DNA from: Candidatus Pacearchaeota archaeon
GTDB taxonomy: Archaea; Nanobdellota; Nanobdellia; Pacearchaeales; GW2011-AR1
NCBI GenBank assembly: GCA_018304985.1
Contig: JAGVWP010000001.1
Coordinates: 3,913-67,912 of the forward strand
Direction of reading: 5' to 3'
Length of the DNA: 64,000 bases
Shown here: piece after piece, positions 32,952-59,830 of the stretch
Layout of the letters: every line of letters starts with the position of its first letter
Position numbering within the stretch: the first letter of the stretch is position 1
Notes under the pieces: generated by a model
The model's input: only the letters and a program-made list of their open reading frames with translations
Told to the model about the DNA's origin: nothing
Database searches by the model: none
Translations under genes and position numbers: made by a program

Positions 32952-33896
32952 TTAAGGATATTTATAAAGCTTTTGATTCATAGTTTCTAAATTTTTAGTA
33001 CATGAATTCACAATATTCAAAAAAGATTTAATTTCTTCCTGCTTTCCTAAATTAAGAACCCAAATAGGTTTACGTTTATCTCCTGGAGGATATTTTCTTA
33101 AATTCAACCTTGGATGGAATCCAAGCCCCTCGATTAATTGTTTAGTTAATTGAATAGTGTTTTCTTCACAACTTACAATTATTAATATAAGATAGCTTCT
33201 ATTATATCTTTTATCATGATTTATGCTCAAACATCCTTCACTTTCATGTATGCCTTTTAAAAAATAAATTGGATAATCTAAGGCGATTTTTCTTATATCT
33301 TCTATAGTCAGGTTATTAAACCAATTATAAAATAACTTTGATGAAGCAATAGTTCTCCAATATTTTTTCTTTTGAAAAATATTTGGATTTAGACCTATCT
33401 TTTTTAAGGTGTCATAAAAACACTTACAAAAATTATAATCCAAAACATCTAATCCTATGAAAGAGTTATTTTTGTATTTATATGTCCAAGCATCACCAAG
33501 TAGAACTCCCAAGATATAAGATATATCGGGTGAGGAAGAAAGATTTGGATTTAGAGTGTTTCCAGGATCCCTCCATTTCAAAAATGAAGTTGATTTTCTT
33601 AATTTAATATTATTTTTTAAAAGATTTTCTCTTATTGTCCATTGTGAGCAATTATATTTTTTTGCTATATCCTTAAAAGATAAATTTTTATTTTCATAAA
33701 AATCTACTAAATCGTCTTTTTTAATATTTATCTTTATTTCATAAAGCCTTCTTTTTATTTTATACTCTATAAGCCTTCTTCTAATTGTTTCTGGGTTACA
33801 TCTATATATTTTAGAAATATCGCTTGTGGATTTTCTTTTTTTCAAATAAAGTCCCTTAAGTTTGCTTCTTGGGATTGTTATTTTTTCATTTTTCAT
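32952..33896 (-). CDS. free-standing LAGLIDADG-family homing-endonuclease-like protein with two N-terminal HTH modules
   Basis: Two LAGLIDADG-type motifs, YILGVLLGDAW and YFLKGIHESEGCL, about 90 aa apart. The N-terminus carries two resolvase-like HTH repeats. Confidence 0.6.
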   Translation of the reverse strand: MKNEKITIPRSKLKGLYLKKRKSTSDISKIYRCNPETIRRRLIEYKIKRRLYEIKINIKKDDLVDFYENKNLSFKDIAKKYNCSQWTIRENLLKNNIKLRKSTSFLKWRDPGNTLNPNLSSSPDISYILGVLLGDAWTYKYKNNSFIGLDVLDYNFCKCFYDTLKKIGLNPNIFQKKKYWRTIASSKLFYNWFNNLTIEDIRKIALDYPIYFLKGIHESEGCLSINHDKRYNRSYLILIIVSCEENTIQLTKQLIEGLGFHPRLNLRKYPPGDKRKPIWVLNLGKQEEIKSFLNIVNSCTKNLETMNQKLYKYP

Positions 33897-33961
33897 TAAT
33901 CTTTAGATCTCAAAATGGAGTCGAGGCATCACAGAATAAAAATAAAGGTATAAAAATATAA

Positions 33962-34795
33962 TTATAATCTGCTAAATAATCCTAATACCTCTTCAAGTTT
34001 TGAAGCAGGTAGTTCTCCTGTTCTGACACCTTCAACAATTTTTTTATGTTCTTCAATTTCTTGAGGAGTGTATTTTTTCACGTTTTCAGTTTCAGTAGTT
34101 TTAGAAACTTTTTGTGAAGCGCCTTCGGCGCTTACTTCACGCACCCCACGAACCCTATCGCCGCTATGAAGGTCCCTGCTGCCGCCATTAAGCACAGACC
34201 TGCTGTCAAGCCTGCTGAACCACAGCTGTCTAGCAAAAGGATAATTTTGTTTATTAACATAATCTTTATCAACTGCCCAAACAGGCATTTTCATTATTTC
34301 TGGTTCTCCATTTCTTAACCAATTTCCATAGGCCTGTGCTTTATCTGAATCTCCTGCTCCAAAAGCCCAGATAGTTAACGCTTCTTCATTAAACCTATTT
34401 GTTGGAATTCCTATATTATGCAAAGGAAAGTCAACAGAATCTGCTAAAGCTTTTTCAATAGCTTCTTTAGAAGGATAAAATTCTTTAATATCCCTATGTG
34501 CCTGTGTTGCTTCTTCAGCTGAATATAAAATTGGAGAATTTCTAACTAATTTAGTTCCTTTTCTAGGAATGTAAAGAACTCCTTCTCTTACATAATTTCC
34601 CTTTGTAGAAACATTATGCTGTTTACCTTGAATCATTCTTTGCTCAACATTTACAGGCAAAGAAATAATATCATAATTTTCACTTTCTAATTCTGCTTGA
34701 GCTAAATCAAAAGGAGCATAAACTATTCCAGATTGAAGTTTACTTGGAACTATATCCACATTTACTTCATACTTTGTTTGAGTTGCTGTTGCCAT
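33962..34795 (-). CDS. hypothetical protein (no TM, locally GC-rich coding patch)
   Basis: 277-aa ORF whose composition is unlike its neighbours. About 160 bp of ~50% GC at 34095-34260. A TATA-like element lies upstream. Confidence 0.45.
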   Translation of the reverse strand: MATATQTKYEVNVDIVPSKLQSGIVYAPFDLAQAELESENYDIISLPVNVEQRMIQGKQHNVSTKGNYVREGVLYIPRKGTKLVRNSPILYSAEEATQAHRDIKEFYPSKEAIEKALADSVDFPLHNIGIPTNRFNEEALTIWAFGAGDSDKAQAYGNWLRNGEPEIMKMPVWAVDKDYVNKQNYPFARQLWFSRLDSRSVLNGGSRDLHSGDRVRGVREVSAEGASQKVSKTTETENVKKYTPQEIEEHKKIVEGVRTGELPASKLEEVLGLFSRL

Positions 34796-34912
34796 ATTTT
34801 TTCTAGAAAAGTAGACTATTTAAACTTTTCTATTAATATTAATTTATTAGTAGTAACAATAAAAAGGTTTATAAGTAATTATTTATACTAATTAAAATAA
34901 GAGTAAGTAAAA

Positions 34913-35626
34913 ATGAAACACGAAATAGAACTGAAGAATGTAACAAAGTATTATTATATGGGTGAGAATATAGTGAAAGCTTTGGATGGAATTAGCATTA
35001 ATATTGAAACGGGAGATTTTGTTGCAATAATGGGGCCTAGTGGAAGTGGAAAATCAACAGGCATGAATCTTACAGGAAGTTTGGATTATGCAACAAAAGG
35101 AGAAATATACTTAAATGGAATGAATATTGAAGAACTTTCAGAATCTGAATTAGCCCAAGTAAGGGGGAAGAAAATCGGATTCATATTTCAGGGTTTTAAT
35201 TTAATTCCTAATTTAACCGCGTTGGAAAATGTAATGCTTCCAATGACTTTTCAAGGATTAGATAAAGATGAGAGAAGAGAAAGAGCTGAGAAGCTTCTTG
35301 AAAAAGTTGAATTAAAAGAAAGGGAAGATCACTATCCTAATCAGCTTTCAGGCGGGCAACAGCAAAGAGTTGCAATTGCAAGAGCATTGGCAAATAATCC
35401 TGAAATAATTCTTGCAGACGAGCCGACTGGAAATTTAGATACAAGAACCGGAGAGATTGTTATTGAATTTCTTGAAAAACTAAATAGTGAAGGCAAAACA
35501 ATAATTATGGTTACTCATGATCCTAATCTGGCACAAAAACATGCCAGAACAGTTTACTGGCTGAAAGATGGAAAAGTGGAGAAAGTTACTAAGAAAGTTA
35601 AGGGAAAGTGGGTAGTTGTAAAATGA
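34913..35626 (+). CDS. ABC transporter ATP-binding protein (MacB/LolD/FtsE-type)
   Basis: Walker [10 protein letters not shown], signature [15 protein letters not shown], Walker B ILADEPT, H-loop. Confidence 0.85.
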
Positions 35627-35757
35627 TTAAAATTTAGAGCAACATATTATAAGGATATACCAACAAGTTGTTACAGTTAGTAGAAATTCCTCTCGATTGA
35701 TATTTTTTATATGTAAATATTTAAGAATACTATGAATTTCTTGGTGTATAAGTTTGA

Positions 35758-36606
35758 TTAATAGTTCGAGATCGTTAGTCTGATTTTTGGATATTCGTTA
35801 TAGTAAACGTCTAGTCTTGGAAAGTTATTATTATCGGATTTAGAATACTCCATGCTTTGATCTTGATTCAAGAAATATTCTAAGCCAAGGTTATCCCAAG
35901 GAAATCTCCAATTGTTTTTAGTTAAGTATGAATGATGTTTTATGTATGTTTCGTTTAGTGGATAGACCGAATTATATTCACAAATTAAGTTGTAATATTT
36001 TGTTCCCCATGTGTCTGTTTTTACCTCGTATTTTATGGTTTCACATTCACCGTTGTTAGAATATATAGGTATATCTTCAAGATAATTTGAAAATTGTCTT
36101 TTATAAGAAAAGTAATTTGAGTTGTAAGCTACTAAAGATATTCCGACTACTATAAGCAATACAACTATTGACAAAATAATAATGTTTTTACGAAGGCTTT
36201 CTTTTTCTTTAACTTTAAAAAGTCCAATTATTCCAATTATGACTCCAATTGCGTAGATAATTCCCAGAACTGGACCACCAAAGATTATTGTAAATATAAG
36301 TACATAACCTACTTCCCCCCATCCAAAGAAAATGTAAGAAACTAGTGCAGCTCCTATAAGGGTAATTATTCCAAGTAAAATAGTAGCTATTAACACCTTT
36401 TTAGCTTTGTTATTTAGTGAGTTTTGTTCTGAATATGATAAAATAATCAAAATAGGTATATTTAATAAGAGTATAATAGAAACCAGATAAATAAATTGAT
36501 AAGCTTGACCTAAGGCGTCTGAATTCAAAATTACCAAGAAATAACGGGAGAAATACAACAATACTGACAAGACTAATAACCCCCAAAGAACTTTTTTCTC
36601 TACCAT
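35758..36606 (-). CDS. hypothetical membrane protein
   Basis: N-terminal multi-TM region followed by a soluble C-terminal domain. Confidence 0.4.
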   Translation of the reverse strand: MVEKKVLWGLLVLSVLLYFSRYFLVILNSDALGQAYQFIYLVSIILLLNIPILIILSYSEQNSLNNKAKKVLIATILLGIITLIGAALVSYIFFGWGEVGYVLIFTIIFGGPVLGIIYAIGVIIGIIGLFKVKEKESLRKNIIILSIVVLLIVVGISLVAYNSNYFSYKRQFSNYLEDIPIYSNNGECETIKYEVKTDTWGTKYYNLICEYNSVYPLNETYIKHHSYLTKNNWRFPWDNLGLEYFLNQDQSMEYSKSDNNNFPRLDVYYNEYPKIRLTISNY

Positions 36607-36760
36607 TTACATATTTATGTTTAATTAGATTTAAAAACTTTGTCTTATCCAGAAATAATGTTCATTCGACAAATAAGAATAGAAAAGTTCAATAAAGCTA
36701 AACTTAAAACACCTACATTTACATATTTTATTTAATTTCTTAATATATTCTACTTTAATT

Positions 36761-37420
36761 TTATTTTTTAGCATTTTTATCAATTTGCTTATTTAACAAA
36801 TTCCAAAGCTTATCTAAAACATATTCAGGAATAACCACTTTATTTTTATTTGTTAAATTTTCAAATGTTGTTCTAAGTTCTAAAATAGCTCTTTCACTTC
36901 CTAAATTAACCTGATTTTCAGCTTCATTAATTATCAAATCCCAATTTATTTTTGAATTATTTATTATATTCAATATATCCAGTTCGTCTTTCTCTCTTCC
37001 AGTAACTGCTTTCATTATGATTAGATCATGAATATCTGCAATTTTTATTATTAAATTATCATTAAATTGCCGAATAGTATCCTCGGATCTTTTTTGCATC
37101 TGCTTTGAAAAAGTCGAGGTTATAACTTTTAACAAAAATAAATCAATCCTTGCATCATCTAACTTAATTAAAATAGGTTTATTGCTTCTATCTCCGTAAA
37201 CTACCTTTGCATCCATTTCACCATACCCTAAAGATTCTGCAGCTTTCTTAAAAGCCTGCCTGTCTTTATCGTTTGTGAAAATTAAATCTATGTCTAATGA
37301 ATTTGCTTTTAATCCAAGAAACATAAGCGCTGTCCCGCCTATTGCATATATTGTAATTTTTTTGTCAAGTCTCTTCGCTATTGATGTAAATAAATTTGTT
37401 TGATCTACTAAAGATATCAT
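36761..37420 (-). CDS. Pol-beta-superfamily nucleotidyltransferase (AbiEii-like toxin candidate)
   Basis: AIGGTALMFLGLKANSLDIDL fits the GG-x12-DhD minimal NTase motif; 4-nt overlap with the upstream wHTH gene. Confidence 0.5.
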   Translation of the reverse strand: MISLVDQTNLFTSIAKRLDKKITIYAIGGTALMFLGLKANSLDIDLIFTNDKDRQAFKKAAESLGYGEMDAKVVYGDRSNKPILIKLDDARIDLFLLKVITSTFSKQMQKRSEDTIRQFNDNLIIKIADIHDLIIMKAVTGREKDELDILNIINNSKINWDLIINEAENQVNLGSERAILELRTTFENLTNKNKVVIPEYVLDKLWNLLNKQIDKNAKK

Positions 37421-38016
37421 AATTCATATTCCTCCAAATCGGCAGTATTTAACGGAATATAAACTTTCCATTTTTTTTCAAGGTCGGTAAAACTTTTAGA
37501 ACTAAATCCTTCAATAAAATACTTGTATTTATCAGATTTTTTTGGTGTTGCAAGAGTCTTGAATCTTTTAGGCATTCTTCTTATCTTTGGAATTACAAGC
37601 CTTGCAATATCATACAATATTGCTACTTCTCTTACCAAATCTTCTTTTTTAGCAAGTTTGTATAAACTGCTCCAGTCTTTTAATCCCCTAAATAAAGAAA
37701 GCGAGGCGATAAGAAACCTTACATCTCTGCGATTTATTGCATAAATCAGGGTTTCTTCTATACTGGGAATTTTGCCATAAATAATATGATTTCCATAGTC
37801 AGCTAATTTTATTCCAGCTGTAGGAGCATATTTATTTATAATATCTATATAACTTATGCCTTTAGCCGGATTTGTAACATAAATATAATACACTCTCATT
37901 TTGCTAGAAGTGTATTTAGTTTTAACATATCCTTTCTTTCGTAATTTATACACAATATAAACTGCTCTAGCCCTGTCTATATCTAACTGGTCTTGGATTG
38001 TCTGAATTGTGTGCAT
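37417..38016 (-). CDS. winged-HTH transcriptional regulator (AbiEi-like antitoxin candidate)
   Basis: Taking the internal ATG at 38016 (MHTIQ...) gives a 200-aa wHTH protein. It is translationally coupled to the NTase gene. Confidence 0.45.
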   Translation of the reverse strand: MHTIQTIQDQLDIDRARAVYIVYKLRKKGYVKTKYTSSKMRVYYIYVTNPAKGISYIDIINKYAPTAGIKLADYGNHIIYGKIPSIEETLIYAINRRDVRFLIASLSLFRGLKDWSSLYKLAKKEDLVREVAILYDIARLVIPKIRRMPKRFKTLATPKKSDKYKYFIEGFSSKSFTDLEKKWKVYIPLNTADLEEYEL

Positions 38017-38060
38017 TCCTTCTAATTTTTTAGCTAATTCGAATAATTTGGTTTTTATAA

Positions 38061-38143
38061 TTAAATGTATGCGAACTAATATATAAACTTTTCTATTATT
38101 TAAGCTAAATGTTAAATGTATGAGCAATAATATATAAATAAAG
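38061..38143. repeat. tandem direct repeat (2 x ~28 bp: ttaaatgtatgMgaaMtaatatataaa) in the divergent promoter region
   Basis: Copies at 38061-38088 and 38112-38143. Confidence 0.7.
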
Positions 38144-38271
38144 TCTTTATTTATATTATATCATTTGAATAAGCTTTTTTAGGATTAAAGATAGATATTT
38201 TAACTTCTTAATGGTAACAATAAAAAGGTTTATAAACTTAGATTTATGGTGATTTTAAGGAGAAAAATGAA

Positions 38272-38652
38272 ATGGAAAGCAGAACAAATGAAGAAAGTGA
38301 AATTGAAAGCGCAATAGAAAGTTATAGAAAGTCAACTTCTAAAAAAAGGTTTATGTTGAAACCTGAAGAAGTCCCGCAATTAATTAGAACTTTTCTTGAT
38401 ATGTTCTATCCTGATGAAGAAACTGATGAATGGTTAAGAACGAAAAATAAAGTATATGGCGGTAAAACTGGCTTAGAGATATTTAGTGAGTTAGATCCTA
38501 AAAAATTAAAGGGCTATATTCATAAATTTCATGATGGTGTATATAAGGTTCTTGCCTTTACTACAGTTCCTGAAGTAATTCCTGTTGAAAGATTTTATTC
38601 AGCAGTTAGAGAAGCGCAATATAAACAACTAAAAGAAATAGGTTTGATTTAA
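38272..38652 (+). CDS. hypothetical acidic protein, first gene of a 9-gene operon
   Basis: ORF; an aaaaggtttataa BRE/TATA box lies about 40 nt upstream. Confidence 0.4.
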   Translation: MESRTNEESEIESAIESYRKSTSKKRFMLKPEEVPQLIRTFLDMFYPDEETDEWLRTKNKVYGGKTGLEIFSELDPKKLKGYIHKFHDGVYKVLAFTTVPEVIPVERFYSAVREAQYKQLKEIGLI

Positions 38653-38653
38653 A

Positions 38654-39199
38654 ATGGAAAACGGAAAAGCTAAATTAGGAAAATTAGAAATTGGTTTAGA
38701 TCAACTTGCAAAGTTTATAGTTAAAGCTAAAAAAAATTGTTATGCTGGAAATGGTCAAGAAGAAAGATTAAGAGATGGCTCTAAAGTTCTGACTTTTCAA
38801 GATGGAGATTTTCATTATACTGATAATTATGCTGGTTTCTACCAAGCTCCCGGAACAGAAATTGTGAGATGGCAAAAAGCTGACGGGCAAAGGTTATGGC
38901 AGATGTCTTATCATGGAAGAATGTTGCCTGAATTTCGGGAAAATGAAGAATTTGCAAAACTAACTTTTAGATTTTTAAAATTAGCATTATCTGAAGCATC
39001 ACAAGACAAACCATTTAGAGGCCCTGAATGGGATAATGGATTTAGAATAGATGACTGGAGATTTAGTAATTGGTTGTATAAAACAAAGACTGAAGGCAAC
39101 CTAACAAACTTCAGAGGAAAAGAAAGAATATTCAATGAATTAGGAAATGAAGTATTTTCACAAGATTATATAGGAGGTTTAGTTATTCCTAAAGATTAA
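38654..39199 (+). CDS. hypothetical protein (possibly DUF5680-like)
   Basis: Motifs YAGNG, DGDFHYTDNYAGF, FRGPEWDNG and YIGGLV. The family assignment is from memory only. Confidence 0.35.
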   Translation: MENGKAKLGKLEIGLDQLAKFIVKAKKNCYAGNGQEERLRDGSKVLTFQDGDFHYTDNYAGFYQAPGTEIVRWQKADGQRLWQMSYHGRMLPEFRENEEFAKLTFRFLKLALSEASQDKPFRGPEWDNGFRIDDWRFSNWLYKTKTEGNLTNFRGKERIFNELGNEVFSQDYIGGLVIPKD

Positions 39200-39200
39200 A

Positions 39201-39458
39201 ATGAAAAGCAGACAAGAATCACATTTAAAGAATATCACAAGAAATATTGATAATTCTATAGCTAACCTAATTTCTCCAAATAGAGAAAGTAATATTTACT
39301 GTAATCTTAGTCTTTTTGAAAATGTAGTAATTGGGGGGTTATTAACTGGAGGAACAGCTAATGCTATAAAAGCAGGAAATGAAATCGGAATAATAAATGC
39401 AGGTATTCTAGCTATTTATTTAAGACATGTTTATTTAGCGAAAAGTTATGATAATTAA
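39201..39458 (+). CDS. small Gly-rich hypothetical protein
   Basis: ORF, 1 nt after the previous gene. Confidence 0.3.
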   Translation: MKSRQESHLKNITRNIDNSIANLISPNRESNIYCNLSLFENVVIGGLLTGGTANAIKAGNEIGIINAGILAIYLRHVYLAKSYDN

Positions 39459-39459
39459 A

Positions 39460-40353
39460 ATGGAAAATAAAAAAACATTTCAAGTTTTGGTATTAACATT
39501 TTTACTTAGCTTGGCTCTTGTTATTACCTTAAGTTCAGTTGCATCTGCAATAACTGTAAGCTCTTTAACTCAAGGAAAGCTTTATCCTGGAGAACAGGCA
39601 ACAATAAGCCTAAGTATAAAAAATACTCTAAATCAGGATGTTGAAGATGTTTCTATGAATTTGCTTTTAGAGGAAACTAAGTTTATTTCAGTAGGTGGAA
39701 GCGAGGAAAGTATTGATGAAATAAGAGAAGATAAAGACAAAAGTTTTGATTTTACACTTAAAGCTTCGCAAGATATTGCTCCTGGAGATTATAATATCCC
39801 TTATGTAATTAGTTATACTGATCCAAATCCTAGTTCTGATGGAAAAAAAATTGAGAAAAAAGGAAGTATTGGAGTTACTGTAAGCGCTAGAACAGAGCTT
39901 GATTATATTGCATCTGCTGAGAACCCTGTAATAGGCCAGCAAGGAAAAGTAAGCCTGAAAATTGTAAACAGAGGATTTGGAGATGTTAAATTTGTTTCTG
40001 TTAAAATAAAACCACAAGGTTTTACATTGCTGTCAAGTGAAGATGTTTATATTGGAAATGTTGATTCAGATGATTTTGAAACAGCAACTTATGATGTTTT
40101 ATTCAAAGATCAAACTGCTAGATTAAAAGCAAGTGTTGAATATAGAGATTTTGACAATAAAAAGCTAGTTGAAGAAATAGACCTTCCATTAAATGTTTAT
40201 ACAAGAGAAAAAGCTTTAGAACTTGGGATAATCCAGAAGAATAATACATGGATGTATGGAATTATTGTTGTATTTGTTGTTATTGCTTGGTTTGTTTATA
40301 GAACAATAAAAAAAAGAATGAAAAGAAATAAAAAAAGAGATGATGGGAAGTAA
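39460..40353 (+). CDS. secreted cell-surface protein (COG1361/CARDB-like beta-sandwich) with C-terminal TM anchor and basic tail
   Basis: Signal peptide (LVLTFLLSLALVITLSSVASA) and a C-terminal WMYGIIVVFVVIAWFVY-RTIKKRMKRNKKR segment. Confidence 0.5.
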   Translation: MENKKTFQVLVLTFLLSLALVITLSSVASAITVSSLTQGKLYPGEQATISLSIKNTLNQDVEDVSMNLLLEETKFISVGGSEESIDEIREDKDKSFDFTLKASQDIAPGDYNIPYVISYTDPNPSSDGKKIEKKGSIGVTVSARTELDYIASAENPVIGQQGKVSLKIVNRGFGDVKFVSVKIKPQGFTLLSSEDVYIGNVDSDDFETATYDVLFKDQTARLKASVEYRDFDNKKLVEEIDLPLNVYTREKALELGIIQKNNTWMYGIIVVFVVIAWFVYRTIKKRMKRNKKRDDGK

Positions 40354-40354
40354 A

Positions 40355-40657
40355 ATGAAACCTATTAACGAAAGGGAAAAAAGAAAAATTATAAAAGGAT
40401 TGTTAAGTATGTTAAAAGTAGAAGAAACTAGATTAACCCAAGCTGTTTCGGAGCATAATTCTAATAGTGTTTTGTATATAAATAAACAAATGGAAAGACT
40501 AGCAAATGAAATTAGTAAGAGGTATATTGATCCTCTTGAAATTAACAACTCTCATAGTCAAGCGTTTTATGAAAAAGTTGATAATGTTTTAATAAGATGT
40601 GGTATTAGAAAGGGGTATTATAGAAAACAAAGAGCTCAGAGGAAGGAAGATGAGTGA
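40355..40657 (+). CDS. small basic hypothetical protein
   Basis: ORF; the start at MKPINE is 1 nt after the upstream stop. Confidence 0.3.
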   Translation: MKPINEREKRKIIKGLLSMLKVEETRLTQAVSEHNSNSVLYINKQMERLANEISKRYIDPLEINNSHSQAFYEKVDNVLIRCGIRKGYYRKQRAQRKEDE

Positions 40658-40994
40658 AGAAAGAGAAGAAGATAGCCCTGTTTATGTTACAAGAATTGTT
40701 AGAGATAAAATGGGAGTAGAGAGTTTATTAAGTTTCTTAGGTTGCACATTTGAATGTGTTCAAAGAATTCCTGAGTCTACGAGTATAATAATCTACCTTG
40801 TTTCTCAATGCGGGGTAGATTATGAAAGAATAGAATATGAAATATTTGATCATGAATATAAAAAGTTAAAAAAGATATCTGAAGAAAATAGGTCTATGAG
40901 TTTGGTCCAAGATCTAGCATTACAAATAGATACTGCATTGGAAAAGGAAGAAAGACAATTTAGAAAAATAGAAAGAAGAAATCAGGAGGCATAA
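40650..40994 (+). CDS. hypothetical protein
   Basis: ORF starting at MSEEREED, overlapping the upstream stop (ATGAGTGA). Confidence 0.3.
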   Translation: MSEEREEDSPVYVTRIVRDKMGVESLLSFLGCTFECVQRIPESTSIIIYLVSQCGVDYERIEYEIFDHEYKKLKKISEENRSMSLVQDLALQIDTALEKEERQFRKIERRNQEA

Positions 40995-40999
40995 CCTCC

Positions 41000-42214
41000 A
41001 TGATAATTGATTATCTTGTTCTGGCATTAAAAAGTCTAAAACATAGAGGGCTGAGAACATGGCTTACAATGCTTGGGATTTTTATTGGAATTGCAGCTGT
41101 TGTTTCACTGATTTCACTTGGTAGCGGATTGCAAAGCGCAATTACAGGCCAATTTGGAGGATTATCTATTGATACATTAACAATTTCTAATGCTGCAACA
41201 GCTTTCGGGCCTCCTGGAAGCACTTCTGTAAAAAAATTAAATGATCATGATTTAGATATTGTTAAAAATACAGATGGAGTGAAACTAGTTGTTACAAGGC
41301 TTATTAGAATTATTAAATTTGAATATAATGATAATACTGCCTTTATCTATATTGCAGACCTTCCTGAAGAAAAAGAGCAAATGGATTTTGTTTACAAGGT
41401 TGCTAATTTCAAATCTGAAAAAGGCAGGATTCTAAATAGCAATGATCATGGAAAAGTGCTGCTTGGAAGCGATTTTCTAACTGACAGGTTTGGAAAAACA
41501 ATTGAGCCAGGAAGCAAAGTAAAAATTAATGGAAAAGATTTTGAAGTTGTTGGAATTTCAAAGAAAACAAGCAATTTCATATTTAATGGCGCGATAATTA
41601 TGTTAAATGATGATATGGAAAATCTTCTAGATATCCACGATAATATTGACTTAATTGTTGCCCAAGTAGAAGATCAAAATAAAATAAATGATGTTGCTAA
41701 TGAAATTGAAAGGAAACTTAGAAAAGACAGGAATAAAAGAATAGGAGAGGAAGATTTTTCTGTGCAGACGCCTTTAGAATCACTTTCAGCAGTCAGCACT
41801 GTATTAAATATTGTTAATTTAATTGTTATTGGCATTGCAGCAATTTCACTTTTAGTTGGAGGAATAGGAATTACCAATACAATGTATACTTCAACATTAG
41901 AAAGAACAAAAGAAATTGGAATAATGAAAGCTGTTGGAGCGAAGAATAAAGATATTTTATTTATCTTTTTAATTGAATCTGGTTTACTTGGATTAGTGGG
42001 GGGAATTATAGGAGCTGCTCTCGGATTAAGATTAGCATTCGCTGCTTCAAGTGTTGCTGGAAGCTTCTTAGGAGGCATTGATTTACAAGTTCAAGTATCA
42101 TGGCCTCTGCTAATCGGCTCTGTTGCATTTTCATTTTTGCTTGGAATTTTCTCAGGTTTGCTTCCTGCGTTACAGGCATCTAAGCTAAAACCAGTGGAGG
42201 CGCTGAGGAAATGA
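41000..42214 (+). CDS. ABC transporter permease, FtsX/MacB type
   Basis: N-terminal TM, a ~250-aa extracytoplasmic domain, 3 C-terminal TM helices, and the conserved TNTMYTSTLERTKEIGIMKAVGA block. Confidence 0.8.
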   Translation: MIIDYLVLALKSLKHRGLRTWLTMLGIFIGIAAVVSLISLGSGLQSAITGQFGGLSIDTLTISNAATAFGPPGSTSVKKLNDHDLDIVKNTDGVKLVVTRLIRIIKFEYNDNTAFIYIADLPEEKEQMDFVYKVANFKSEKGRILNSNDHGKVLLGSDFLTDRFGKTIEPGSKVKINGKDFEVVGISKKTSNFIFNGAIIMLNDDMENLLDIHDNIDLIVAQVEDQNKINDVANEIERKLRKDRNKRIGEEDFSVQTPLESLSAVSTVLNIVNLIVIGIAAISLLVGGIGITNTMYTSTLERTKEIGIMKAVGAKNKDILFIFLIESGLLGLVGGIIGAALGLRLAFAASSVAGSFLGGIDLQVQVSWPLLIGSVAFSFLLGIFSGLLPALQASKLKPVEALRK

Positions 42215-42744
42215 GAAAAATTAAAGGATATATTTGCGCAGCAAGAATTGAAGAAATTATTTATCCAAATATAAGAGAATATGTTTTATTTGGTAAAAAA
42301 CAAGATGCAAAGATTATAGGAAATCACGAAGCTTTAGCAACAAATAATCTAACTGCTTATGAAAATCTACCTGACGCGGAATTGGGCCTGCAAGATTTAG
42401 CAAAAATGGATGAATTTGATAGAGTTGAAGTAAGAAAATTAGAAATGTGGGTTGCAGAAAATGCTGAAGAACTTTATTCTTTTGAAAAAGAAAATTCTTT
42501 AGTTGTTATTTGGGATAATTTTATGGGAAAGCAAATAATAGGAGTATATACGGGCGGTAGGGGGTTGAGTACCTTACCTGGAGATTATATAATACGTAAT
42601 GGATTTAAGCCATTTAATAACTTTGAAAGAGCTAATTGGGCTAGAAGTGAAGCAAGCAGACAAAGCGGCAGTTCTCCTGCAACTTTGGCAAAATTCAAAA
42701 TTTCTAAACCTTTAAGAGTAATTGGAAGAAGAGGTGGAAAATGA
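42211..42744 (+). CDS. hypothetical protein between the two permease genes
   Basis: ATGA overlaps at both ends. Confidence 0.35.
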   Translation: MRKIKGYICAARIEEIIYPNIREYVLFGKKQDAKIIGNHEALATNNLTAYENLPDAELGLQDLAKMDEFDRVEVRKLEMWVAENAEELYSFEKENSLVVIWDNFMGKQIIGVYTGGRGLSTLPGDYIIRNGFKPFNNFERANWARSEASRQSGSSPATLAKFKISKPLRVIGRRGGK

Positions 42745-43952
42745 TCACAGACTACTTTAACATTGCGTGGAAGAACTTAAGAAAAAGAAAATTGAGATCC
42801 TGGCTGACAATAGTTGGAATTGTAATCTCGGTTGCAACAATATTTACACTTATCAGCTTGTCAATTGGACTGCAAAATGCTGTGAAAGAGCAATTTGAAA
42901 CGCTTGGAGGGGATAAATTTTTTATCCAGCCTAAAGGCCAGCTAGGCCCGCCACAAGCAGGGGGAGCTGTTCAGCTTACAATTAATGATATAGATGTTAT
43001 TGATAAAGTAACTGGGGTAAAAAGAACAGCTTATTTTACAATTGGAAATGCGCAAATTGAATTTGAAAAAGAAAAAAGATTCTTTTCAGTTTATGGTTTG
43101 CCTCCTGAATTCATGAATCTTTATATAGAAACAGGATCTTTTGAAATTGATGAGGGGAGAGTTTTAAAAAATGGGGATAGGAATAAGGTAATTATTGGAA
43201 ATCATTACAAAACAAGAAATATTTTCAGTACAAATGTAAAAGCTGGAGATAAATTTATAATTAATGATAAAGAGTTTGAGGTTGTTGGTATTTTTAAAGC
43301 AATAGGAAATCCGGATGATGATAGAAGTATAATAATGCCTAGAGATGATTTTATTGAAATGTTTAATTCTGGAGGCAGGGTTGATGCAATAATGGTTCAG
43401 GTAGATGAAGGAGCAGATGTTAAAGCTGTTGCTGAGGTTGTTGAAAAGAAATTACGTAAGTTTAGAAATGTTGATGAAAAAAATCAGGATTTTACAATTT
43501 TAACTCCTGAAGAAATTCTGGCTATTTTTGGAACAGTACTTGGAATAATAACCGCTTTTCTTGGAGCAATTGCTGCAATTTCATTATTAGTTGGAGCAAT
43601 TGGCATTACAAACACAATGTATACTTCTGTATTGGAAAGAACAAAAGAAATTGGAATTATGAAAGCAGTAGGAGTGAAGAATAAAGATATTTTATTTATC
43701 TTTTTAATTGAATCTGGTTTAATTGGTTTGGTTGGAGGGGTTATTGGAGTGGGATTAGGTTATTCGGTAAGCAAGACAATAGAATTAATTGCAACACAAT
43801 CTCTTGGAACAAATCTTTTACAAGCTGCTGCTCCATTATACTTAATTCTTGGCTGCTTGGCATTTGCATTCTTAATAGGAAGTGCTTCAGGAACATGGCC
43901 TGCATGGAGAGCTAGCAAGATAAAAGTTGTTGATGCGTTGAGGTATGAGTAA
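42741..43952 (+). CDS. ABC transporter permease, FtsX/MacB type (paralogue)
   Basis: Same architecture, with the TNTMYTSVLERTKEIGIMKAVG block. Confidence 0.8.
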   Translation: MITDYFNIAWKNLRKRKLRSWLTIVGIVISVATIFTLISLSIGLQNAVKEQFETLGGDKFFIQPKGQLGPPQAGGAVQLTINDIDVIDKVTGVKRTAYFTIGNAQIEFEKEKRFFSVYGLPPEFMNLYIETGSFEIDEGRVLKNGDRNKVIIGNHYKTRNIFSTNVKAGDKFIINDKEFEVVGIFKAIGNPDDDRSIIMPRDDFIEMFNSGGRVDAIMVQVDEGADVKAVAEVVEKKLRKFRNVDEKNQDFTILTPEEILAIFGTVLGIITAFLGAIAAISLLVGAIGITNTMYTSVLERTKEIGIMKAVGVKNKDILFIFLIESGLIGLVGGVIGVGLGYSVSKTIELIATQSLGTNLLQAAAPLYLILGCLAFAFLIGSASGTWPAWRASKIKVVDALRYE

Positions 43953-44368
43953 AAATTAGTAAATTTCTTAAATAAATTAGGCGAAATTATTTTATAAGTC
44001 GCGGACGGACAACATTCTCTAATCTTCCAGAACAAGAAGCAAGAAACTTTCTATCTTCATCACAAGCATCAAGAAATTTAGAAGTTGGTACCGCTTGATC
44101 AACAATATCCCACATTTCATGAGCAACTTCCCTAGTAGTTTTAGAAGAATTATATTCTGAAGCATTAATATCTGGATAATTATTCATCTATATACAGTCT
44201 ATTTCAAATATATAAAAATTTATATTTTCAATTGAAATAGTCATTTAAACCTCTTCTGCACAATAAATAAGTTTAAAAACATGGCTTTGTATTTTATTAA
44301 TCTGGTGATTGAAATAGATAAAACAAGGTAAAATAAAATAATAAAAAAGAGGAAAATAAAGAAAAGAG

Positions 44369-44542
44369 ATGAAAAAATGTATTTATTGCAAGGCTGAAAT
44401 TCCAAGTGAAAGTGTAATTGATTTCTGTGAGAGATGTGGAGTTGGTGTGTGGGGACCAAAAATGTTTAATACAATCAAAAAAAGCATGGAAGAAGCTAGA
44501 GATAAAGGTAATTTAGACCAGGGATTAATAAGCATGAAGTAA
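44369..44542 (+). CDS. small zinc-ribbon protein (57 aa, CxxC...CxxC)
   Basis: MKKCIYCKAEIPSESVIDFCERCGVGVW...; below the ORF-track size cutoff. Preferred over the low-complexity antisense ORF 44241-44459. Confidence 0.4.
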   Translation: MKKCIYCKAEIPSESVIDFCERCGVGVWGPKMFNTIKKSMEEARDKGNLDQGLISMK

Positions 44543-59363: not shown

Positions 59364-59624
59364 TTATCTTAAATCTTCTTCAGAAACAACTACAAAATCC
59401 CCTATAGCCATGATAGAATTGTGAGGAATAAGCAATTCCCCTTGATTTGTTCTTTCAAGATTAAGGTTTTGAGAGTAAACTGTCGGGTTTTTAATAACTA
59501 ATTGTATTAATTCGCCACTTCTTGTTTCAAAAGTAATGTCCTGAATAAAACCTATTCTCTTACCTTCTTTTGTAACAACTAATTTTCCGGCAAGTTCCCT
59601 TAACGCTCTTTTTTCGTCTGACAT
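59364..59624 (-). CDS. PRC-barrel domain protein
   Basis: GKRIGFIQDITFETRSGELIQLVI pattern. Start taken at the ATG (MSDEKR), with an aaaagtttaaata BRE/TATA about 30 nt upstream. Confidence 0.5.
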   Translation of the reverse strand: MSDEKRALRELAGKLVVTKEGKRIGFIQDITFETRSGELIQLVIKNPTVYSQNLNLERTNQGELLIPHNSIMAIGDFVVVSEEDLR

Positions 59625-59830
59625 ATTAGGTAAAAATAGACTCAATATTTAAACTTTTCTATTATTTGTTAATGAGTATTCAATGATTAGTGTTATTAAA
59701 ATTAATTATAATAGATTTTGAATAGATTAATTCTAACAGAGTTGATTGTAAGGTTTTTGAATGGTTATAGTTTAAAAAGGGAAAGTAATGATTTGAAATA
59801 CCCTTAAAGGGTGGCATTGCACAAACTTGA

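Follow-up and report, generated by a model that had tools for sequence, protein, structure and literature searches.

The conserved ABC module and its form in the window

The type VII ABC systems (MacB, LolCDE and FtsEX) offer, by analogy, a model for how the locus analysed here would work. Based on the comparison of 80 DPANN species genomes, the conserved unit of this kind consists of an ATPase gene, the gene of a CARDB-domain protein and one or two FtsX-type permease genes, and this order, ATPase>CARDB>FtsX(>FtsX), is contiguous in 61 of the 80. Alternative orders are rare (CARDB>FtsX>FtsX>ATPase in five genomes, ATPase>FtsX>FtsX in four). The CARDB gene adjoins an FtsX gene in 76 of 88 loci, and L009, the closest GTDB representative, has a compact four-gene operon. 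In the window (the whole 64,000-nucleotide stretch of a Pacearchaeota genome that was analysed), the locus is, with a probability of about 0.72, a rearranged form of this four-gene DPANN module, in which an insertion has split an ABC core interleaved with hitchhiking, mostly lineage-specific small ORFs, and a promoter has been duplicated (Table 1). On this reading it is a common archaeal MacB/FtsX-type module, rearranged, and not a new nine-part machine.

Table 1. Genes and promoter elements of the ABC locus (positions in the window)
Feature	Position	Strand	Length (aa)	Description
14-mer copy	34822-34835	-		Putative BRE/TATA for a divergently oriented gene of 277 aa (33962-34795)
22-mer copy	34853-34874	+		Operon-type promoter, presumably the derived copy; ends 39 nt before the ATG of the ATPase gene
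ATPase	34913-35626	+	237	ABC ATPase, MJ0796/LolD/MacB-type (ABC_tran, E = 1.2e-34)
Block gene 1	35758-36606	-	282	Polytopic membrane protein
Block gene 2	36761-37420	-	219	DUF6036 nucleotidyltransferase (PF19502, E = 1e-5, 25.8 bits, above cut-off)
Block gene 3	37417-38016	-	236/199 by start	Winged-helix protein; weak TrmB/MarR-type HTH matches
14-mer copy	38085-38098	-		Putative BRE/TATA of the divergent 236/199-aa gene
22-mer copy	38214-38235	+		Operon promoter, presumably ancestral; end 37 nt upstream of the o1 ATG
o1	38272-38652	+	126	
o2	38654-39199	+	181	DUF5680 protein
o3	39201-39458	+	85	Orphan ORF
o4	39460-40353	+	297	CARDB-domain protein
o5	40355-40657	+	100	Basic orphan ORF, junction cassette
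o6	40650-40994	+	114	Orphan ORF
o7	41000-42214	+	404	FtsX/MacB permease a (FtsXa)
o8	42211-42744	+	177	Cytoplasmic protein
o9	42741-43952	+	403	FtsX/MacB permease b

The core genes were assigned by Pfam, NCBIfam and PDB comparisons. The best solved relative of the ATPase is MJ0796 (E = 1e-77), and a tblastn search found no second ABC ATPase in the window; the other 237-aa ORF is a GT2 glycosyltransferase. The ATPase is 95% identical to that of the closest relative, L007, whose copy sits directly before the CARDB gene. Because the orthologue stands directly upstream of the CARDB gene in those 61 relatives, the unlinked ATPase is very probably the partner of the window permeases. The o4 product (301 aa if the alternative ATG at 39448 is used) matches CARDB (1.4e-6), NPCBM_assoc (2.2e-6) and DUF11 (6.8e-4), and has hydrophobic segments at residues 4-37 and 261-285. 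It is predicted to lie on the surface as an Ig-like beta-sandwich protein, with a signal peptide, a C-terminal TM anchor and a basic tail; it is a conserved core component with a dN/dS of 0.14, and its identity to the L007 protein is 84-86%. Both permeases match MacB_PCD and FtsX (E = 1e-21 to 1e-26) and are paralogues with 44% identity, most likely forming a LolC/LolE-style heterodimer. FtsXa has four TM segments and an extracytoplasmic MacB_PCD domain, and is 86% identical to its L007 counterpart (dN/dS 0.14).

By analogy with type VII systems, an ATPase dimer would make the large extracytoplasmic domains of the permeases change shape. These movements would affect an external partner or substrate, a role for which the CARDB protein encoded alongside is the natural choice. 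Such a core would work with neither a transmembrane channel nor a tripartite conduit. No membrane-fusion or outer-membrane component exists, and the tripartite-like exporter of the original prediction therefore lacks its parts.

Layout of the operon and coding status of the small ORFs

With start codons chosen from gene calls on identical contigs and relatives, the successive junctions of o1 to o9 are +1, +1, +1, +1, -8, +5, -4 and -4 nt, of the TAAnATG or ATGA type, and the nine genes are a tightly coupled unit that is probably co-transcribed. The small ORFs have in-frame codon scores of +0.22 to +0.43 and negative off-frame scores, and an open frame of 85-126 codons would arise by chance in DNA of the same composition with a probability of only 3e-4 to 6e-6; because of this, they are real genes. 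None of the six small proteins (o1, o2, o3, o5, o6 and o8) has a TM-like segment. Much of what had been predicted from the letters alone is thus borne out: nine closely spaced forward-strand coding ORFs, two paralogous MacB/FtsX-type permeases, a DUF5680-like protein, an anchored beta-sandwich protein that carries a signal peptide, and a sole MacB-type ATPase. The small ORFs are without promoters of their own, and their translation would be coupled stop to start, at TAAnATG or ATGA junctions or through an SD followed by ATG.

The DUF5680 and 177-aa proteins

The o2 product matches PF18931 (DUF5680; E = 3.9e-16), is cytoplasmic, and has a confident AF2 model (pLDDT 92.8) with no significant PDB match and no solved relative; its dN/dS against L095 is 0.26. 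DUF5680 is found in 69 DPANN clusters. Its upstream neighbours in 61 loci include L18e (nine), S11 (five) and ABC ATPases (six), and its downstream neighbours in 43 loci L13 (10), RpoD (four), CARDB (four) and ABC ATPases (two). The commonest site is the L18e/L13 junction of the ribosomal-protein operon. In about 10 distinct contigs the gene lies within the ABC operon or next to it, either before the ATPase or between ATPase and CARDB. Judged from its neighbours, DUF5680 appears to be a DPANN gene that is mobile within this neighbourhood and resides more often in the ribosomal operon.

The o8 family is narrow (five clusters, all Pacearchaeota), with an invariant RQSxSSPATLA motif in the alignment. 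In four of five contexts (the window, L007, L175 and L177) the gene follows FtsXa, in L007 after one further ORF, and the o8 identity of 47-69% tracks the FtsXa identity of 58-86%. The dN/dS of 0.43 indicates purifying selection. Of the six small proteins only o8 recurs between two permeases, and it alone is a plausible clade-specific accessory factor. One might go further and regard o8 above all, and possibly DUF5680, as cytoplasmic proteins, specific to the clade, that regulate the ABC system or act as its adaptors, binding for example the ATPase or the cytoplasmic face of a permease, with the other small proteins as passengers. The kept position, the motif and selection on o8, and the ABC-associated copies of DUF5680 speak for this; however, plain vertical inheritance in a small clade could account for the position, the L008 homologue follows a PD-(D/E)XK nuclease instead, o8 is missing from most genomes with the same core and has no fold match, and neither a fold nor a family gives a functional hint, so that we consider such a role unlikely. 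The kept position of o8 and the occurrence of DUF5680 in or beside the ABC operon nevertheless mean that some small proteins could be functionally tied to the transporter.

Insertion between the ATPase and the operon, and the shared promoter

The ATPase is parted from the remaining core by about 2.6 kb carrying three opposite-strand genes. The first has no family match; the second also matches AbiEii weakly (E = 0.0028) and overlaps the upstream winged-helix gene by 4 nt, and these two genes resemble a toxin-antitoxin (TA) pair. The ORF of the winged-helix gene can be extended to a TTG at 38127, but the ATG at 38016 is favoured because a TATA-like block (38080-38087) falls downstream of that TTG. 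Among 174 related loci the three genes are confined to same-species contigs, and in L007 the CARDB gene follows the ATPase after 75 nt with no block between them. This comparison indicates that the block entered the operon in this Pacearchaeota lineage and so parted the ATPase from the other core genes.

The 22-mer GTAACAATAAAAAGGTTTATAA, which comprises a BRE/TATA and 8 nt upstream of it, occurs exactly twice in the window, before the ATPase and before o1. The original prediction had recognized this identity, its coordinates deviating by 1 nt at one site and 2 nt at the other. Two matches occurred in none of 100 shuffles, and the likeness around the two sites extends over 76 nt at 71% identity. 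Because the 13-nt BRE/TATA core is exact at these two sites only and its looser matches (26, against 19 ± 3.9 expected) are at chance level, the sharing does not reflect a generic consensus. The L007 ATPase/CARDB intergenic region is orthologous to window 38197-38271 and contains the 22-mer with one mismatch, and in L095 the orthologous sequence, a 21-mer, stands before DUF5680>CARDB. The region upstream of the L007 ATPase orthologue differs from that of the window, and the likeness of the two window promoters stops immediately past the TATA box. From these two relatives we infer that an ancestral internal promoter before CARDB was duplicated before the ATPase, whose upstream neighbourhood also seems to have been rearranged. 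The two units now share one BRE/TATA sequence together with the 8 bases before it, at essentially the same distance from the start codon, and since they share a specific duplicated promoter, their co-regulation, as originally predicted, is a reasonable assumption; matched promoters would keep ATPase and permease expression even.

The identical 22-mer could instead be a shared operator bound by a dedicated transcription factor, and it fits this that L007 and L095 conserve, in their orthologous promoters, the 8 nt that precede the BRE as well as some 20 other bases. Such conservation is compatible with duplication, the two not being exclusive, but no regulator gene is linked, and the likeness ends right after the TATA box as expected of a recombination breakpoint; we regard an operator as distinctly improbable and retain the historical duplication.

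A shorter block, the 14-mer AAACTTTTCTATTA, had also been assigned to both units, at 34822 and 38084. It is shared, at 34822 and 38085, with a third exact copy at 59651 (0.42 expected). All three copies read AGAAAAGTTTA(A/T)ATA on the minus strand; two precede the start codon of a minus-strand gene by about 25-30 nt, and the one at 38085 lies about 65 nt upstream of 38016, the first in-frame ATG of the 236-aa ORF. In L095 an m277-like(-)/promoter arrangement is colinear with the region of the first copy. The 14-mers appear to be BRE/TATA elements of divergent genes, outside the plus-strand promoter.

Small ORFs gained at the core-gene junctions

Compared with its relatives, the operon has gained small ORFs at every junction of the core genes. 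Homologues of o3 were sought in the 174 related loci and the 90% clusters, and those of o5 in the same sets and in viral contigs. In the related loci o3 (codon score +0.42) is found in same-species contigs only and is absent from L095, L120, L121 and L126; its 90% cluster has one member. L091 has an ORF of equal length (85 aa) in this position, which was rejected as a homologue for want of detectable similarity (E = 0.74). For o5, whose codon score (+0.22) is the lowest of the set, no homologue was found in the related loci or viral contigs, and a 101-aa ORF at the same position of L007 was rejected (E = 19). No homologue of o6 was found in the related loci or by a word-index search of 5.8 billion clusters. 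Only its first six or so and last three or so codons, which carry SD and start signals, are shared with the gene that L007 (122 aa) and L106 (129 aa) have in its place; the latter two genes are homologous to each other, and thus the window ORF would be the replaced one.

In L007, unrelated ORFs occupy the o5 and o6 positions, and the SD/start linkers between them are kept. Four-fold sites of the flanking genes are 67-74% identical between the window and L007, whereas the o5 and o6 bodies are 40-48% identical to the ORFs at the same place. Because the latter value is near what unrelated AT-rich DNA yields when its alignment is forced (0.29 expected per site at random), the bodies seem to have been replaced and not to have drifted. 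This bears on the idea that o3, o5 and o6 are kept open only to carry ribosomes to the downstream permease genes, their protein sequence being unconstrained. The conserved linkers with unconserved bodies, the lowest coding scores in o5 and o6, and the missing homologues agree with such a relay; however, neutral DNA would still be alignable at the divergence seen from L007 (pS 0.42-0.44, with about 30% of four-fold sites different), compact operons such as that of L009 run without a spacer, and all three ORFs show frame-specific codon usage, which makes a mere relay very improbable.

The first ORF, o1, is likewise absent from the 174 related loci. Its homologues among representatives number 21 at E ≤ 1e-3 and eight at E ≤ 1e-10, and this small family was not seen beside ABC genes in the loci examined. 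It weakly resembles the Xre/MbcA/ParS C-terminal (DUF2384) domain, PF09722 being matched, again weakly, by three members out of 19. In L095, which has no o1, the same 5'UTR leads directly to DUF5680, and o1 appears to have been inserted between this promoter and DUF5680.

Since o3, o5 and o6 are orphans, the o1 family is not found elsewhere beside ABC genes in the loci examined, and DUF5680 is commoner in the ribosomal operon, the small ORFs are probably hitchhikers and not subunits, o8 excepted. Accordingly, the view of the small ORFs as accessory parts is not supported, and among relatives it is the core order that is kept, with o8 alone of the small proteins keeping its place across a small clade. 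That all nine products join with the ATPase in a single atypical machine for export or surface remodelling, with dedicated cytoplasmic accessory subunits, as the tight coupling, the common promoter and the recurrence of o8 and DUF5680 in or near the operon of some relatives might suggest, is largely refuted by the lack of conservation and scarcely credible, for four small ORFs are missing from every other genome examined, the closest relative has unrelated ORFs at two of their positions, the 61 relatives have the same core without such ORFs, DUF5680 lies chiefly in ribosomal operons, and TA genes and a HAD hydrolase fill the same junctions elsewhere. These foreign inserts are ParE and DUF7557 in L010; in L026 and L030 the same NTP_transf_2 (MNT-type nucleotidyltransferase) gene, at different junctions, followed by a second conserved gene that is HEPN-like by eye with no family match; and in L120 and L126 the HAD hydrolase.

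Gene content of the operon

The locus comes from a Candidatus Pacearchaeota (DPANN) genome of about 30% GC, and identical contigs were found in Rifle-type groundwater metagenomes and in a GenBank MAG, in which all six of the small ORFs are labeled 'hypothetical protein'. Contigs of the same species are at least 99.9% identical, too alike for polymorphism-based selection tests. The nine tightly packed ORFs (o1 to o9) of the original prediction are present, with junctions of +1, +1, +1, +1, -8, +5, -4 and -4 nt, the start codons being taken as supported by gene calls on the identical contigs and by relatives. Two of the ORFs, o7 (FtsXa, permease a) and o9 (FtsXb, permease b), encode paralogues that are 44% identical, carry MacB_PCD (residues 20-238) and FtsX (276-398) domains in Pfam, and have four hydrophobic segments each by hydropathy, that is, the four-TM architecture with an extracytoplasmic domain. 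The 297-aa product of o4 is a CARDB/NPCBM_assoc protein (Pfam) with one N-terminal and one C-terminal hydrophobic segment. No TM-like segments were recognized by hydropathy in the six small proteins (o1, o2, o3, o5, o6 and o8).

As had been predicted, the MacB-type ATPase is the only ABC ATPase within the window. It matches ABC_tran with an E-value of 1.2e-34, possesses the Walker A, signature motif, Walker B and H-loop (VTHD is visible in the sequence) of the LolD/MacB/FtsE clade of nucleotide-binding domains (NBDs), and has its best matches in MacB, LolD and MJ0796.

A 182-nt stretch of the two permease genes is 87% identical at the DNA level, against 44% for the proteins overall, which suggests local gene conversion or unusually strong constraint. 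Contig L005, from the same population in another sample, lacks 221 nt of the end of o6 and the start of o7, and this gap is either a deletion variant or an assembly artefact.

Coordinates of the features of the locus and of related loci (positions without a contig label are those of the window)
Feature	Position	Strand	Remark
Operon o1 to o9	38272-43952	+	
ABC ATPase gene	34913-35626	+	237 aa
22-mer, copy before ATPase	34853-34874		
22-mer, copy before o1	38214-38235		
14-mer, copy near operon	38085	-	its gene has the first in-frame ATG at 38016, about 65 nt downstream
14-mer, third copy	59651-59664	-	exact; about 25 nt upstream of the ATG of the 93-aa ORF
93-aa ORF	59364-59624	-	
27-nt tandem repeat	38061-38087, 38112-38138		89% identical
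17-nt palindrome	38127-38161		
314-aa protein gene	32952-33896	-	between rpoN and the 277-aa gene
277-aa protein gene	33962-34795	-	no family match
277-aa homologue	L010:4451-5059	+	between ATPase and CARDB genes
277-aa homologue	L106:729-1031	+	between ATPase and CARDB genes
277-aa homologue	L095:1-108	-	divergent from operon promoter, as in the window
Polytopic membrane protein gene		-	2.6-kb gap
DUF6036 nucleotidyltransferase gene		-	2.6-kb gap; E = 1e-5
Winged-helix protein gene		-	2.6-kb gap; overlaps the DUF6036 gene
182-nt stretch shared by o7 and o9	41834-42014, 43569-43749		TM2-TM3
Segment absent from L005	40979-41199		end of o6 and first 67 codons of o7, TM1 included
ATPase gene with intein	L015:5547-7787	+	Nanoarchaeota MAG; single 747-codon ORF
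DUF5680 gene in relatives	L096:679-1200, L106:8001-8513, L093:5001-5546		
Second junction family	L007:9600-10004, L010:9615-10004, L175:781-1203		129-140 aa

Conservation of the core module

A common archaeal branch of the type VII ABC superfamily is represented here in rearranged form, with hitchhiker ORFs added: a four-gene core is conserved, an insertion accompanied by promoter duplication has separated its ATPase, and the ORFs at its junctions turn over. The sequence observations of the original prediction stand and its interpretation is supported in part, for the locus is a core transporter with hitchhikers and not one nine-part machine.

With permease b as the query and each species represented by one genome, 80 DPANN loci were retrieved. 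The order ATPase>CARDB>FtsX(>FtsX) was found in 61 of them, CARDB>FtsX>FtsX>ATPase in five and ATPase>FtsX>FtsX in four, so that the core is a four-gene, at times a three-gene, module. When all of the window proteins were used in tblastn against 88 loci, 72 contained the ATPase, 76 the CARDB protein and 87 FtsX. The ATPase and permease orthologues are adjacent in 70 of the 80 relatives, and this adjacency supports a partnership of the two, which would work as an NBD2:TMD2 complex with ATP-driven mechanotransmission. Every part of the module is present in the window. The window ATPase is displaced by 2.6 kb of inserted DNA, yet it is orthologous to the adjacent ATPase of contig L007, the closest relative with an ATPase and most of the operon (ATPase 95%, CARDB protein 84-86% and FtsXa 86% identical).

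MacB, Lol and FtsEX have in this core a very common archaeal relative. In DPANN it is constantly paired with an anchored CARDB protein, which suggests a role at the cell surface of host-attached organisms. To this picture the present locus contributes nothing unusual: neither the split with its promoter copy, nor the swapping of junction ORFs, nor the persistence of o8, nor the context of DUF5680 alters what the transporter is.

In one relative (L015) the orthologous ATPase carries an intein of about 510 aa directly after the Walker A motif (GPSGSGK|C...IIIHN|S), with a region that is LAGLIDADG homing endonuclease-like by eye.

Relation to characterized ABC systems

The module sits in the type VII ABC superfamily, outside every characterized family there, and every NCBIfam equivalog model (MacB, LolCDE, FtsEX and DevC) falls short of its cut-off by far. 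The best solved relative of the window ATPase is MJ0796 of Methanocaldococcus jannaschii, a LolD/MacB-family NBD (E = 1e-77, full length), which is likely representative of the MacB-family NBDs according to a review (PMC8277102). The closest solved relatives of the permeases are MacB, a pneumococcal MacB-like permease, YtrF and LolC. The neighbours of the MJ0796 gene presumably encode an FtsX-type permease and a COG1361 protein, an arrangement that would amount to the same module; unlike that locus, the window has two permease paralogues, an unlinked ATPase and interleaved extra ORFs. To our knowledge, no function has been established for the archaeal module, and no functional account was found in the literature on DUF5680, COG1361, MJ0795/MJ0797 and DPANN FtsX.

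The resemblance to MacAB-TolC lies in the MacB_PCD domain between TM1 and TM2, the FtsX C-terminal domain and an NBD of the same family, and MacB chains are the best solved relatives of permease b (E = 1.6e-32). However, in the window system the NBD is a separate polypeptide, the extracytoplasmic partner is the CARDB protein, whose fold class is other than that of an HlyD/MFP adaptor or an outer-membrane factor, and there is no membrane-fusion protein, outer-membrane channel or outer membrane. The NCBIfam MacB model reached 131 bits against a cut-off of 966, and no HlyD, MFP or OEP domains were recognized in the ORFs from 32952 to 44542. With no adaptor or outer-membrane component encoded nearby, the predicted 'tripartite-like' exporter has to be abandoned; the module is not a tripartite pump.

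As in LolCDE, there are two paralogous 4-TM permeases and a LolD-like ATPase, which argues for a heterodimeric type VII ABC arrangement, but the lolCE (TIGR02212) and LolD (TIGR02211) models gave 68-72 bits against 362 and 242 against 308, respectively. The Lol pathway, with LolA/LolB and an outer membrane, belongs to diderm bacteria. In FtsEX, YtrEF and BceAB-type systems of monoderm bacteria, an FtsX-fold permease signals to an extracytoplasmic partner rather than forming a channel, and these systems offer the best functional analogy for the pairing of an ABC system with CARDB in a cell bounded by one membrane. The solved relatives include YtrF (E = 3.6e-18). The FtsX models scored 39-53 bits against 225-255, FtsE scored 221 against 265, and the window partner is a membrane-anchored Ig-like protein rather than a hydrolase activator or sensor kinase.

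By analogy with MacB, LolCDE and FtsEX, the ATPase dimer would drive movements of the extracytoplasmic domains of an FtsXa/FtsXb heterodimer, and through these movements affect an extracytoplasmic partner, for which the CARDB protein with its C-terminal anchor is the most plausible candidate. Both transcription units would be co-expressed through their identical BRE/TATA elements, and the small ORFs would be translated by termination-reinitiation or by Shine-Dalgarno-dependent coupling on the operon mRNA.

Separation of the ATPase gene and duplication of the promoter

The predicted 22-mer, GTAACAATAAAAAGGTTTATAA, occurs exactly before both the ATPase gene and o1; no further site was found even at three mismatches (0 of 100 shuffles). 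Similarity around the two copies covers 76 nt at 71% identity. The original prediction had allowed that such identity might reflect a generic BRE/TATA consensus, and variants of the 13-nt BRE/TATA core with two mismatches do occur (26, versus 19 +/- 3.9 by chance). Because these variants are at chance level and the exact core is confined to the two 22-mer sites, the identity is specific and this explanation was not borne out. The copies end 37-39 nt before the start codon, which, by sequence, fits an archaeal TATA box at about -26 and a short leader.

In L007, the CARDB gene begins 75 nt after the ATPase gene, and the intergenic region, which is orthologous to window positions 38197-38271, contains the 22-mer with one mismatch. 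In L095 (CARDB protein 83% identical), the element lies before DUF5680>CARDB, beside a divergent gene resembling that of the 277-aa protein, as at window positions 34795-34874. Judged from these two relatives, the copy before o1 is the ancestral internal promoter, and the one before the ATPase is derived, the sequence upstream of the ATPase gene being different in L007. The likeness of the two window copies stops immediately downstream of the TATA box. Three genes occupy the 2.6-kb gap that separates the ATPase from the operon; among the related loci searched they occur in this species only, and two of them, for the winged-helix and DUF6036 proteins, form a toxin-antitoxin (TA)-like pair. The locus thus offers a clean natural example of an operon that was split while its promoter was copied, and testable evidence for selection on matched ATPase/permease expression.

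The 14-mer, proposed as another block shared by co-regulated units, did not hold as a plus-strand regulatory element: it is the BRE/TATA of divergent minus-strand genes, and all three copies read AGAAAAGTTTA(A/T)ATA on the minus strand. For two copies, a minus-strand start codon follows about 25-30 nt downstream. One of these two, the exact copy of AAACTTTTCTATTA before a 93-aa ORF (listed as the third copy in the table), shows that the motif is a strong BRE/TATA variant of minus-strand genes. Between the divergent gene and the operon promoter, a tandem 27-nt repeat and a 17-nt palindrome together bring the spacing of these two elements, the 14-mer and the 22-mer, to 115 nt instead of 17.

Two further minus-strand genes lie on the other side of the ATPase. 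The 314-aa protein, found in this species only among the loci examined, has N-terminal HTH motifs and a LAGLIDADG_3-like domain and resembles a free-standing homing endonuclease. The 277-aa gene recurs in relatives and, given its varied positions, is another gene mobile within the neighbourhood; no relatives of its product were found in viral contigs.

The small ORFs

Frame-specific codon usage was recognized in all six of the small ORFs, most weakly in o5 and o6, and chance open frames of such lengths at this composition are very improbable (3e-4 to 4e-8), so that these ORFs represent maintained reading frames.

The o1 protein belongs to a real family (21 representative homologues, eight at E<=1e-10) with invariant W, S and Q, and is faintly like the Xre/MbcA/ParS C-terminal (DUF2384-like) domain (Xre_ParS E = 0.049; PF09722 matches in 3 of 19 family members, E>=0.0025). 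L095 lacks it, the same 5'UTR and first two codons there leading straight into DUF5680, and in all other loci DUF5680 likewise stands without o1. In one 840-aa homologue (P0089), the o1-type domain forms the N-terminus of a protein that has a P-loop (GKWGSGKTS) and by eye resembles a KAP NTPase, so that in conflict-type proteins the domain may act as an adaptor or a sensor.

The 181-aa o2 protein is a DUF5680 protein (Pfam E = 3.9e-16; PF18931 59.8 bits, cut-off 25, profile positions 1-104 of 104), with a confident predicted model (pLDDT 92.8) and no solved structural relative. DUF5680 is widespread in DPANN (69 clusters). It lies in or beside the ABC operon, at varying positions, in about ten distinct contigs, and ABC components are a minority among its neighbours: in 80 metagenome loci the commonest were L18e upstream (9/61) and L13 downstream (10/43), followed by S11 and RpoD. 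Its commonest DPANN site is in the S13-S9 ribosomal/RNA-polymerase operon, between L18e/L13 or S11/RpoD (L096-L160), and one genome has it flanked by S3Ae and an ORF that is L44e-like by eye. Such a location hints at a link to translation rather than transport and is the first contextual lead for this DUF. Since the ABC operon adjoins the ribosomal cluster in these genomes, the association of DUF5680 with it looks regional, not functional.

Among the six small proteins, o8 is the exception by its positional persistence. It is known from five clusters, has an invariant RQSxSSPATLA motif and a dN/dS of 0.43, and follows FtsXa in four of five contexts: the window, L007 (with one further ORF between), L175 and L177. 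In L008 its homologue adjoins a PD-(D/E)XK nuclease.

Turnover at the operon junctions

No homologue of o3, o5 or o6 was found in 174 related loci, nor of o6 in a word-index search of 5.8 billion clusters, nor of o5 in viral contigs. In L007 the CARDB/FtsXa junction is occupied by two ORFs, of 101 and 122 aa, that show no relationship to o5 and o6 (BLASTP E = 19 and 0.7). That o5 and o6 are fast-diverged orthologues of these ORFs is ruled out by four-fold degenerate sites in the flanking genes, which are 67-74% identical between the window and L007 (dS 0.6-0.7), whereas the bodies of o5 and o6 reach only 40-48% in forced alignment, near the level of unrelated AT-rich DNA (random per-site 0.29). 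The bodies were thus replaced, not diverged. The 122-aa ORF of L007 and a 129-aa ORF of L106 are mutually homologous, so that they represent the older occupant and o6 the replacement. The Shine-Dalgarno/start linkers are kept across the window, L007, L106 and L010, namely GGAAGTAA(A/G)ATGAA, CAGGAGG(A/C)AGGAAGATGA and CAGGAGGCATA(A/G)CC..ATG. A hairpin before permease a, GGAGGCATAACCTCC, was discarded as a regulatory element, its complementarity being lost in L007 and L010.

Inserts of more than 200 nt were found at 20 CARDB/FtsX or FtsX/FtsX junctions in the loci examined, encoding 55 singletons versus 14 small clusters. The identifiable ones are selfish or unrelated genes: ParE with DUF7557 in L010; the same NTP_transf_2 (MNT-type) gene in both L026 and L030, though not at the same junction, each time followed by a conserved gene without a family match that by eye is HEPN-like; and a HAD hydrolase in L120 and L126. 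The ParE and NTP_transf_2 inserts, like the winged-helix and DUF6036 pair of the window, resemble TA or selfish modules carried in operons. Unlike such TA/defence modules, the six small ORFs match no such family significantly, o1 being faintly DUF2384-like; for o1/o2 and o5/o6 as type II TA pairs, no significant Pfam, NCBIfam or PADLOC match was obtained, and the small and inserted proteins, scanned against PADLOC and PHROGs, yielded nothing beyond a weak AbiEii match of the DUF6036 protein. An integron cassette array likewise places promoter-less ORFs of unrelated function, varying between close relatives, behind one promoter, but the window gaps of 1-5 nt or overlaps are too small for attC, the boundaries are translation-coupling signals, and no integrase domain was recognized among the neighbouring ORFs.

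The ABC operon was also considered as a unique insertion hot spot and rejected, since ribosomal-operon junctions are occupied too, mainly by DUF5680, in a sample that was selected for DUF5680. Junction colonization therefore seems a general habit of these genomes, not a property of the transporter. That unrelated coupled small ORFs turn over between close relatives is a caution against taking tight coupling as evidence for shared function.

A more far-reaching explanation, which we consider unlikely, is that operon stop-start junctions of Pacearchaeota and their DPANN relatives are landing sites at which promoter-less ORFs are gained, swapped and lost by recombination between the SD-ATG(A) linkers. 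Such exchange would then have left its footprint in the window, L007/L106 and L010, where conserved linkers enclose unrelated bodies, and o8 would be a cassette fixed as a transporter accessory. If landing sites of this kind exist, a minimal genome could try out new small proteins, orphans like o3, o5 and o6 included, while expressing them as strongly as a housekeeping operon.

A second junction family without a family match lies between the permeases in L007, L010 and L175, preceding o8 in L007 but following its homologue in L175; its members start with M-I-x-K-[RK]-[IV]-[LF]-[VI]-[IL]-[ED]-[DK].
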